64,000 nucleotides of DNA, taken from positions 1 to 64,000 of the IMG/VR virus record IMGVR_UViG_3300008267_000023. One strand, 5' to 3'. The stretch is from a virus. The notes beneath the pieces are model-generated. The model worked only from the letters and a program-made list of their open reading frames with translations, made no database searches and was not told the origin of the DNA. The position numbers were made by a program, and so were the translations under genes. The first letter of the stretch is position 1, and each line of letters opens with the position of its first letter. Below, piece by piece: positions 4,326-7,234 of the stretch.

Positions 4326-4510
4326 AAGAAAAATTTGAAGACGTTCTTAGGAAAGAACTCAAAAAAGAATTTGAACATCAAATGAATGTTCAAGTAAATC
4401 AATCAGAATTAAAAAATATTATAAAAGAATATAAAAAAATTAAGAAGTTCCAGAAGACACCACTTTATGAAGTGATGCAAATGGATAAGAAAAGTAAAAA
4501 AGATTCTTAA
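4322..4510 (+). CDS. Hypothetical basic protein
   Basis: ATGA overlap with upstream gene. Confidence 0.6.
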   Translation: MKEKFEDVLRKELKKEFEHQMNVQVNQSELKNIIKEYKKIKKFQKTPLYEVMQMDKKSKKDS

Positions 4511-4513
4511 TTT

Positions 4514-4529
4514 TGTATCAGATTTTACA
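4514..4529. promoter_or_regulatory. NtcA-binding box
   Basis: TGTA-TCAGATTT-TACA is a perfect GTA-N8-TAC, intergenic, just upstream of the promoter. Confidence 0.7.
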
Positions 4530-4536
4530 AAAGTGC

Positions 4537-4566
4537 TTGACTATATAGAGTGAATAGGAGTAGAGT
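4537..4566 (+). promoter_or_regulatory. sigma70-like promoter
   Basis: TTGACT (4537) - 18 nt - TAGAGT (4561). Confidence 0.55.
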
Positions 4567-4576
4567 AATCTCCTAA

Positions 4577-4874
4577 CGTTCATCCTATGACTAAAGCACT
4601 TTTGCTTTTAGCATGGGTTCCACTTCTTTCTTTTACTACGCCACAACTCATAGCAACTGAACATCCAGTTACAATAAGTTGCGACGCAGCGTGGGAACTA
4701 ATGGACATCGTTAAAAACGACGATGTAGTTATTCAAAAAGTAGAAGACCGATTGCTACTAGAACTCCGAAAGGATGTTGTAAACAAGTGCTAAAAACTGA
4801 ATAGGACGGAAGTAAGCCGACTCGGAACGGATCGTTCATCGGGAAACCGACGCAAAAGCCGACTGAAGGAACGC
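4577..4874 (+). ncRNA. Glutamine riboswitch-like RNA (glnA / Downstream-peptide family), double aptamer with an ORF in the P2 loop
   Basis: Two CGTTCA and two GGAACG strands; CGGAAGTA and GAAGGAACGC E-loop signature; stems TCCTAT/ATAGGA and TCGG-GAAA-CCGA; upstream of a YRG peptide. Confidence 0.8.
4587..4793 (+). CDS. Small putatively exported two-Cys protein nested inside the riboswitch P2 loop
   Basis: 68 aa with signal-peptide-like N-terminus; ISC..A..L...V...LELxK..C pattern shared with 50700..50870. Confidence 0.7.
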   Translation: MTKALLLLAWVPLLSFTTPQLIATEHPVTISCDAAWELMDIVKNDDVVIQKVEDRLLLELRKDVVNKC

Positions 4875-4904
4875 TCTTTAGCCTCAAAATTAAGGAGAAC
4901 CCTA

Positions 4905-5063
4905 ATGTCTAAAGCCGTTTATAGAGGGTGTTCATACGACACCGATAATGCAAAAAAAGAGTATGAAACTTGGTATCTCAAAAGTCATGCTCCTGCTCAC
5001 CCACAAAATACATATCGTGGAGTAGCATATCGTCCATGCAAAAACATGGAGGTTCAAAAGTGA
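4905..5063 (+). CDS. YRG-motif peptide (DUF4278 / IF17 N-terminal-like), 52 aa
   Basis: AAGGAG RBS at 4892; MSKAVYRGCSYD...TYRGVAYRP; not in ORF track. Confidence 0.8.
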   Translation: MSKAVYRGCSYDTDNAKKEYETWYLKSHAPAHPQNTYRGVAYRPCKNMEVQK

Positions 5064-5158
5064 AAAAACTTAACTTCTTACAACTCATTAAAGATAAAAA
5101 ACAAAAAGAAGAACGTCGTCATCAAGCTCAATTGGCTCATCTAGTTGGAGCAAAGTGA
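5060..5158 (+). CDS. 32-aa basic peptide MKKLNFLQLIKDKKQKEERRHQAQLAHLVGAK
   Basis: GGAGG RBS at 5048; GTG start overlapping upstream TGA. Confidence 0.65.
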   Translation: MKKLNFLQLIKDKKQKEERRHQAQLAHLVGAK

Positions 5159-5247
5159 TGGTAGGACAAATTATCATAACTTCAACTGCTGCAATTGCTT
5201 TAACTACAATGTTATTGTCAGTATATATTCAGTGGATTTATAAATGA
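5158..5247 (+). CDS. 29-aa single-TM peptide
   Basis: TGATG coupling, GGAG RBS, hydrophobic core. Confidence 0.55.
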   Translation: MVGQIIITSTAAIALTTMLLSVYIQWIYK

Positions 5248-5253
5248 TTTTCT

Positions 5254-5281
5254 AAGGAGGGGTTGATCCCCTCCTTTTTTT
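5254..5281 (+). terminator. Intrinsic terminator closing the peptide operon
   Basis: AAGGAGGGG-TTGAT-CCCCTCCTT followed by a T run. Confidence 0.85.
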
Positions 5282-6473: not shown

Positions 6474-7234
6474 TGTCAAGAAAAAGAAGGAATTCTGACC
6501 AACCAATCGGAGTTGGTATGACTGCAAAGCAAATGAGAAGAAAGAGACCTCTTAATTCCGATTTGCTAATTGATATTGAACCATTAACAGATAATCAAAA
6601 AAAATTATTTGAATCATATTCAAAAGGAAGACATCTAGTTGCTTACGGTGCTGCTGGAACAGGTAAGACATTTATTACTCTATACAATGCTTTAAAGGAA
6701 GTTCTAAATGAGATTACTCCATACGAGCAAATTTATATTGTTCGTTCACTAGTTGCAACTCGTGAGATTGGATTCCTTCCAGGGGACCATGAAGATAAGT
6801 CTAGTCTTTATCAGATTCCATACAAGAATATGGTAAAGTACATGTTCCAACTTCCAACTGAAACAGATTTTGAAATGCTTTATGGAAACTTGAAGCAACA
6901 AGAAACTATTAAGTTCTGGAGTACATCATTTGTTCGTGGAACAACTTTAGATAATTCAATTATTATTGTTGATGAATTTCAAAATATGAATTTTCATGAG
7001 TTGGATTCTATCATTACTCGTGTTGGTGAAGATTCCAAGATTATGTTCTGCGGAGACGCATCCCAATCAGATTTAACGAAGTCAAATGAGAGAAATGGAA
7101 TCAGTGATTTTATGGATATCTTGAGGAAAATGCCATCTTTTGATATAATTGAGTTTGGTATTGATGATATTGTCCGTTCTGGACTTGTTAAAGAATACTT
7201 AATTGCAAAAATGGAATCTGGATTGAATGTTTGA
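6473..7234 (+). CDS. phoH: PhoH-family ATPase
   Basis: GAAGTGKT, IGFLPGD, RGTTLD, IIVDEFQN, GDASQSDL. Confidence 0.95.
   Translation: MSRKRRNSDQPIGVGMTAKQMRRKRPLNSDLLIDIEPLTDNQKKLFESYSKGRHLVAYGAAGTGKTFITLYNALKEVLNEITPYEQIYIVRSLVATREIGFLPGDHEDKSSLYQIPYKNMVKYMFQLPTETDFEMLYGNLKQQETIKFWSTSFVRGTTLDNSIIIVDEFQNMNFHELDSIITRVGEDSKIMFCGDASQSDLTKSNERNGISDFMDILRKMPSFDIIEFGIDDIVRSGLVKEYLIAKMESGLNV

Follow-up and report, generated by a model that had tools for sequence, protein, structure and literature searches.

Covariation supports a nested, strand-exchanging fold for a two-unit glutamine-aptamer element of cyanophages

The virus record IMGVR_UViG_3300008267_000023 of IMG/VR (83 kb, approximately 40% complete) carries, upstream of a short gene, an RNA element in which both strands of the P1 (pocket) helix of a glutamine riboswitch aptamer occur twice. 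The stretch analysed here, positions 1 to 64,000 of that record, is referred to as the window, and the element occupies its positions 4577-4874. The locus raises the question of which strand pairs with which: the first CGUUC may pair with the first GAACG, giving two aptamers in tandem, or it may reach over a complete second core to the last GAACG, so that one unit is nested inside the other. Tandem copies of the glnA RNA have been on record since 2010 (PMC2864571); one account has two or three aptamers separated by a few nucleotides (nt), without a known benefit (PMC5066625), and a survey counted 157 doublets and 4 triplets of a 'pseudo-cooperative' kind (PMC9481103). For 15 years the copies have been listed as neighbouring, independent aptamers whose pairing has no known advantage. 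An earlier note, made from the sequence of the window alone, had instead proposed a nested pair with a circularly permuted inner copy, and all the motifs that it listed are present where it had placed them. The explanation that we hold to be the best, and highly probable, is a single composite sensor of two strand-exchanging glutamine-aptamer units with a proposed glutamine ON readout.

Comparative evidence for the pairing of the two units

The kin of the window are T4-like cyanophages of Prochlorococcus and Synechococcus; in a similarity search the 40-mer 4801-4840 was found at 92-97% identity in many genomes, and matching DNA is present in freshwater and lake metagenomes. A motif-pattern scan of IMG/VR returned at least 120 loci. 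The recurrence of the 40-mer in myophages, the number of pattern loci and an Rfam E value of 8e-6 (see below) place the element far beyond chance. Together with three annotated reference phages (S-CREM1, S-PM2 and P-SSM4) and the window, the IMG/VR loci among the matches listed were parsed into a set of 118 elements; tallies are given for 117, since the locus L070 was set apart as a symmetric variant. A scan of the genome_contigs collection yielded two real composites among the 120 matches listed, both on small contigs of metagenome-assembled genomes, the remainder being chance matches. S-CREM1 and S-PM2 have the same two-unit layout as the window with short P2 loops, and P-SSM4 has it with one gene inside each P2 loop. 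In all three phages unit 1 has the AGUA half of the E-loop without GAA, unit 2 has GAA without AGUA, and the linker is 3 nt long.

The first line of evidence comes from the linchpin pairs. The pocket helix of both solved glutamine classes ends with a pair between the third CG-N base of the junction and the base after GAACG, and the junction strand sits in the groove of the helix containing its own CGUUC strand (PMC6698751). Because the junction strand is tied covalently through the P2 hairpin to its own CGUUC strand, covariation of the linchpin reports the P1 partner. In the window G4809 is complementary to C4874 and C4853 to G4830, while the tandem alternatives, G4809 with G4830 and C4853 with C4874, are not complementary, as the earlier note had observed. 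This distinction extends to the relatives: the outer nested linchpin is a Watson-Crick pair in 117 of 117 elements (G-C, n = 35; C-G, n = 82) and the inner one in 115 (C-G), with one further G.U, whereas the side-by-side combinations pair in only 81 each. On a tree made from the 200 nt downstream of the elements, both outer linchpin bases change eight times and always jointly, with three of the eight contrasts on supported branches.

The second line of evidence is the shared P3. With AGUA confined to unit 1 and GAA to unit 2 in all but one of the 118 elements, a tandem fold separates the halves of the E-loop, as had been claimed. In the window one quasi-palindrome, AGCCGACU, occurs twice, as the octamer that directly follows AGUA (H1) and as the octamer that directly precedes GAA (H2). 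The proposed P3 segment AGCCG (4815-4819) with CGACT (4860-4864) does contain the single C.A mismatch ascribed to it, but the helix is longer than was thought: the full inter-unit pairing of 4815-4822 with 4857-4864 spans 8 positions and has two C.A mismatches. H1 and H2 occur in 35 distinct combinations with compensatory changes and antiparallel pairing. The inner terminal pair varies between U-A, G-C and A-U and the outer one between A-U and G-C, internal positions co-change as well, and shorter versions exist (GGACGG/CCGCCC, AGUCG/CGACU). In 39 distinct short-loop elements aligned with MAFFT, the pairs found only in the nested fold were paired in 82% of cases with 41 double-change cells, and their covariation score of 0.280 (0.094 in shuffles) was reached by 0 of 500 shuffles and collapsed in shifted registers. 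The pairs found only in the tandem fold, that is, local mini-hairpins and tandem linchpins, were paired in 66.7% of cases, their score was reached by 331 of 500 shuffles, and no double change was seen among them in the same 39 elements. Covariation across cyanophage relatives, proposed earlier as a check, thus came out for the nested pairs. Counted on supported branches of the tree, the P3 contrasts numbered 6 + 6 + 5 independent cases, none discordant.

As the P1 strands themselves are nearly invariant, the third test was a search for a flipped fifth pair. CAACG as the first 3′ strand together with CGUUG as the second 5′ strand was found in 11 composites with at least four P3 backgrounds, and in all 11 the first 5′ strand stays CGUUC and the last 3′ strand stays GAACG. 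A side-by-side fold would here acquire C.C and G.G mismatches, while the nested fold keeps both helices. Uncompensated combinations of the fifth pair gave no composite among 48 and 53 matches, all of which were chance, and a corresponding search for the flip in the outer P1 gave two chance matches only. RNAalifold also picks the nested P1 helices in the 39-sequence alignment. Nearest-neighbour energies favour them in the window (−83.1 versus −80.2 kcal/mol) and in all 39 relatives compared (mean −3.1 kcal/mol), although such energies cannot score the E-loop, C.A pairs, linchpins or tertiary contacts and serve as supporting evidence only. The nested rather than the tandem arrangement is therefore supported by three independent comparative tests on sequence: the linchpins, the inter-unit P3 and the flip in the inner P1. 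The pairs of the P2a stem also covary among the 39 aligned elements (U-A, A-U, C-G and others).

The outer core would accordingly be read as a glutamine-I three-way junction of P1, P2a, CGG junction and E-loop, with G4809-C4874 capping P1, and with a P3 that is a long-range helix instead of a hairpin and is predicted to open into the second core. The inner core would be a circular permutation in which P1 is closed by a hairpin and P3 is opened toward the outer core; the term used in the earlier note is topologically right relative to glutamine-I. The inner P1 loop is 3-5 nt long across elements, its first base is the linchpin G, and no E-loop lies beside the inner junction. CGUUC, A, CG-N and GGAACG-N are kept in both cores and are invariant across more than 100 elements, and among them is every nucleotide that in 5DDP and 6QN3 touches glutamine or takes part in building its pocket (PMC6698751). 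With all pocket nucleotides kept in each core, two glutamines probably bind per element. The features are collected in Table 1.

Table 1. Features of the glutamine-aptamer element and its surroundings in the window
Feature	Position	Strand	Basis or remark
NtcA-box-like site GTA-N8-TAC	4515-4528	+	Sequence; just upstream of −35
Sigma-70-like promoter TTGACT, 18 nt, TAGAGT	4537-4566	+	Consensus scan; start placed tentatively near 4573
CGTTCA copies	4577-4582, 4833-4838	+	Sequence
GAACG copies	4825-4829, 4869-4873	+	Sequence
Outer P1, 5′ strand CGUUC	4577-4581	+	Sequence; probable partner 4869-4873 from linchpin covariation, inner-hairpin flip variants, RNAalifold and nearest-neighbour energies
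A after outer P1 5′ strand	4582	+	Sequence
P2a stem UCCUAU/AUAGGA	4583-4588/4801-4806	+	Six Watson-Crick pairs; closes a 212-nt loop
68-codon open reading frame in P2a loop	4587-4793	+	List of open reading frames; ATG overlaps P2a 5′ strand
Outer junction CGGA, linchpin base G4809	4807-4810	+	Partner C4874; linchpin tally
E-loop half AGUA	4811-4814	+	Partner GAA 4865-4867
P3, 5′ strand AGCCGACU	4815-4822	+	Antiparallel with 4857-4864; covariation
Inner P1 hairpin: G, GAACG (4825-4829), loop GAU, CGUUC (4833-4837)	4824-4837	+	Linchpin base G4830; flip variants
P2b UCGG-GAAA-CCGA	4839-4850	+	Sequence; pairs covary among relatives
Inner junction CGCAAA	4851-4856	+	C4853 pairs with G4830; linchpin tally
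P3, 3′ strand AGCCGACU	4857-4864	+	Covariation with 4815-4822
E-loop half GAA and conserved G before GAACG	4865-4868	+	Matches GAAG of the RF01739 consensus
Outer P1, 3′ strand GAACG and linchpin C4874	4869-4874	+	Sequence, linchpin tally, folding
Candidate expression platform: CUCUUUAG (4874-4881) with UUAAGGAG (Shine-Dalgarno, 4890-4897)	4874-4897	+	8-pair hairpin in the minimum-free-energy fold; C4874-G4881 pairs with U4890-G4897
Regulated gene (putative): 52-amino-acid YRG-repeat protein, DUF4278/IF17-like	4905-5063	+	ATG at 4905; two YRG motifs

Relation to known glutamine riboswitches and alternative explanations

At gathering thresholds Rfam had no match in the whole window. In a search of 501 nt the Glutamine (glnA) model RF01739 aligned to 4831-4877, which is unit 2 alone, with 34.6 bits against a threshold of 35 (E = 8e-6), and S-CREM1 and S-PM2 scored 33.5 and 33.3 bits. 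The Downstream-peptide (Glutamine-II) model RF01704 had no match up to E = 10 within 4450-4950; on unit 1 of S-PM2 it scored 24.6 bits, under its threshold of 33. The Rfam check that had been suggested for both models was hence borderline for the first and negative for the second.

The outer core resembles glutamine-I (RF01739; 5DDP; gifB) in its P1 of CGUUC/GAACG, the following A, the P2 hairpin, the CGG-A junction, AGUA/GAA, the G before GAACG and the G-C cap. Like glutamine-I, it lies upstream of a gene of the DUF4278 kind, and the nucleotide following P1 is able to pair with the ribosome site, a pairing already put forward for gifB (PMC6212724). The outer core differs in that P3 is a short hairpin in glutamine-I but here a long-range helix between the units that encloses a complete second core; in that both E-loop halves belong to one unit in the consensus, whereas here they come together only in the nested fold and in neither unit alone; and in the P2 loop, which is here 212 nt long and protein-coding. 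The inner core resembles glutamine-II (RF01704; 6QN3) in the order CGUUC-A-hairpin-CGCA, in GGAACGG, in the C:G pair (C19:G41 in 6QN3) and in having no E-loop beside the junction. The pocket helix of glutamine-II is, however, a pseudoknot, whereas here it is a hairpin with a 3-nt loop in which GAACGG is followed by AU-CGUUC, and the P2 that glutamine-II forms from sequences flanking GGAACGG has no 3′ strand here. The proposal that the element combines a glnA-type with a Downstream-peptide-type junction consequently stands for the subclass of the window (35/117), but not for the family as a whole: in 82 of 117 elements both junctions are CGC...GAACGG, the inner core is without the glutamine-II P2 pseudoknot helix, and RF01704 did not match.

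The exchange of P1 strands has a structural precedent. In a strand-swapped crystal homodimer of glutamine-II the pocket helices are likewise formed by CGUUC of one unit and GAACG of the other (PMC6698751, PMC7357161), so such an exchange, with a hybrid pocket helix, is sterically possible. The partners in the dimer are separate molecules, and their exchange was put down to crystallisation, as an artefact that 'presumably does not occur in vivo' (PMC6698751; reviewed in PMC7357161), whereas the units here are covalently joined and the exchange is kept by selection. Published tandem glutamine aptamers are adjacent, separately folded domains, and those of the tandem glycine riboswitch come together through tertiary contacts. 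The two units considered here have secondary structure in common, as they exchange P1 strands and both use P3. As a variation on a known riboswitch class, the fold was not described in the literature searched, although Ames & Breaker 2011 and Ren 2015 lay outside that search and could show it. One survey listed only two glutamine aptamers in cyanophages (PMC5473149), and the paper on S-CREM1 reported, without comment, a 99-nt glnA match of 44 bits spanning both units (PMC9964418).

The arrangement that the papers describe, two or three adjacent aptamers a few nt apart (PMC2864571, PMC5066625, PMC9481103), would in the window consist of P1 helices 4577-4581/4825-4829 and 4833-4837/4869-4873 with tiny local P3 hairpins and independent binding. 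It agrees with Weinberg's raw alignment, which places such elements through unit 2 alone and leaves unit 1 in the flank, and with Rfam 15, which aligns unit 2 alone at 33-35 bits; a covariance model is, however, blind to pairs across units, and its alignment is therefore no evidence for the fold. Independent aptamers would moreover have mismatched linchpins in the window and in many relatives and unit-wise incomplete E-loops, the CAACG/CGUUG variants would disrupt both of their P1 helices, and the closing pairs of their local P3 hairpins do not form in 27 of 39 and in 19 of 31 elements, and show no compensatory change. We consider this arrangement very improbable. Somewhat less so, though still improbable, is a two-state device in which unit 1 pairs in tandem early in transcription and later adopts the nested pairing, with the exchange itself, under the control of glutamine or of ribosomes translating the embedded open reading frame (ORF), serving as part of the switch. 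The identical P1 strands would permit exchange without mismatch, transcription completes unit 1 approximately 45 nt ahead of the outer 3′ strand, the two folds are computed to differ little in energy, and ORFs in the P2 loops begin in the P2 5′ strand and in many cases end in the conserved core, so that their translation must unfold the sensor. A selected tandem state is nevertheless not visible, the tandem-only pairs being without covariation; unit 1 in tandem would have no linchpin in 35 of 117 elements, the window included; and ribosome gating cannot be general when both loops are free of ORFs in 43 of the 118 elements. Least probable of all is a structure that binds a protein or the ribosome, or a degenerate relic of a glutamine aptamer kept for another reason. 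The Rfam score just under the gathering threshold would fit such a reading, but it is opposed by pocket nucleotides (CGUUC, A, CG-N, GGAACG-N) that are invariant in both cores of more than 100 elements, by linchpins that covary as in validated aptamers, by a downstream gene of the DUF4278 class, which is a target of validated glutamine riboswitches (PMC6212724), and by the NtcA-like box upstream.

Several observations weigh against the composite sensor. The search patterns fixed AAGUA, GGAACG and CGUUCA, and the sample is accordingly biased to canonical elements. Only 3 of the 8 outer-linchpin contrasts lie on well-supported branches, which leaves few independent events. With four P1 strands that are identical in the window, both topologies can form, and the gap between them is only about 3 kcal/mol. 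Two P3 positions are kept as C.A or A.C mismatches across relatives, and RNAalifold did not call P3 in the 39-sequence alignment. Tandem glutamine aptamers are said not to be cooperative in vitro in a passage of PMC5066625, a secondary source that cites Ames & Breaker 2011. The anti-Shine-Dalgarno hairpin of the candidate expression platform is kept neither in the types of L011, L044 and L066 nor in the Y2 = G class. Finally, glutamine binding, two-site occupancy and ON logic are inferences.

If the element is one interlocked fold, the apparent defects of each unit, namely half an E-loop and mismatched linchpins, are explained, as is the failure of family scans to pick up hundreds of phage copies. 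An arrangement dismissed as a crystal artefact would then be used in nature, and a compact natural two-site RNA of approximately 95 nt would be at hand for studies of structure and cooperativity.

Predicted readout and the regulated gene

While the fold is supported by covariation, we infer ligand binding, the ON logic and a coupling between the two sites. C4874 has two possible partners, the linchpin G4809 and G4897 in the Shine-Dalgarno region. Without ligand, C4874 and the following UCUUUAG would pair with the Shine-Dalgarno region 4890-4897; glutamine would fix the outer P1, the linchpin would capture C4874, and the ribosome site would be freed so that the DUF4278 (IF17-like) gene is turned on. 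Gripping the far end of P3, the inner core should tune the outer one. In the gifB leader of Synechocystis, which acts as an ON switch, the ribosome site is masked by the nucleotide that follows P1 together with those next to it (PMC6212724), and by likeness to this leader the analysis suggests a glutamine ON switch here. The sequence GAACGCUCUUUA...UAAGGAG is kept in most relatives of the Y2 = C class, the subclass of the window.

A further step can be imagined, and we put it forward tentatively as a possibility with the odds against it. The element might be an obligate two-ligand sensor in which the glutamine of the inner core locks P3, whereupon the outer linchpin closes and frees the ribosome site, giving a steeper or thresholded response with ribosome traffic in the P2 loops and the NtcA-type promoter as additional inputs. 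If so, a single phage mRNA would carry a multi-input computer of nitrogen state, and the element would be the first natural riboswitch whose aptamers share secondary structure through strand exchange.

The putative target is the gene of 52 amino acids in Table 1, and a gene of this kind follows nearly all the elements of the relatives. Its product matched Pfam PF14105 over residues 3-50 with 22.9 bits (E = 1e-4), below the gathering threshold of 25.3, and phrog_5049 with 6.6e-9. Membership in DUF4278 is on these scores not established; the protein resembles the short IF17-like proteins of picocyanobacteria (PMC6212724). If the reading of the element is true, it bears on how cyanophages read the nitrogen state of the host and time an IF17-like factor, with glutamine synthetase as its possible target.

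The NtcA-like box was found at −63 to −56 from CGUUC in 65 of 110 distinct relatives, where 0.3 are expected from shuffles, and TTGAC(T)/TATAAT hexamers occur in relatives at a matching distance from CGUUC. An inverted repeat TAGGAG...CTCCTA (4556-4576) flanks the −10 hexamer immediately 5′ of P1. In relatives the arms at this site differ and yet are complementary (GGTC..GACC, GTGTTA..TAACAC, TAGAGG..CCTCTA). The repeat may serve as an operator-like site in the DNA; should transcription begin further upstream, it could instead form a 5′ hairpin. Metatranscriptome contigs from four lake runs of two studies span approximately 4350-5167 and break at the conserved cores; they record presence in RNA libraries only, as start, end and strand are not readable from contigs.

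Embedded reading frames, variant elements and downstream sequences

The frame of the ORF in the P2a loop of the window is open at 66-68 codons in eight relatives, with 72-85% amino-acid identity. Across the 118 elements ORFs were counted in P2a (n = 25), in P2b (n = 62) and in both (n = 12). Many of them extend across the P2 3′ strand and terminate at the UAA of the conserved AAGUAAG in unit 1 or at the UGA of CUGAAGG in unit 2. The products of the ORFs, that of the window included, have a hydrophobic N-terminus, a Cys, approximately 35-45 residues and another Cys near the end, and had no match to a Pfam or PHROG family. In P-SSM4 (L002), a manA RNA (RF01745, 184 bits) is located at 719-904, approximately 90 nt upstream of the glutamine composite.

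In L070 (approximately 636-1090), AGUA and GAA are both present in each of the two units, and the 8-mers AGGCGACA and UGCCACCU pair mutually at 6 of 8 positions. L070 was considered as a true side-by-side tandem and rejected, since its two 8-mers pair with each other. In L270 (approximately 4560-4620), GAA precedes the first 3′ strand. From their sequences these two loci resemble a symmetric version of the element, in which both ends of the shared P3 carry an E-loop. L103 (approximately 6500-6960) is a triplet, in which units 1 and 2 are of the AGUA type and unit 3 of the GAA type. AGUCA of unit 2 is perfectly complementary to UGACU of unit 3, a strand with which AGCCG of unit 1 is also able to pair; the two pairings are mutually exclusive. 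A similar quasi-palindromic 8-mer, CGCCGACU, lies between AGUA and GAA in the single-unit glnA RNA JCVI_SCAF_1096627355794 (first row of supplementary file 80 of PMC2864571). As this 8-mer is incapable of a stable hairpin, such single units might pair in trans.

Downstream of the 52-amino-acid gene, a 32-codon ORF with a GTG start (5060-5158; VKKLNFLQLIKDKKQKEERRHQAQLAHLVGAK) overlaps the stop codon of the DUF4278-like gene. A similar peptide, LQLIKEKKQKE...QA.LA, comes after the YRG peptide or forms a fusion with it in relatives (L001, L037, L059, L096 and L118). Next come a 30-codon hydrophobic ORF (5155-5247) and a terminator-like hairpin (5254-5276).

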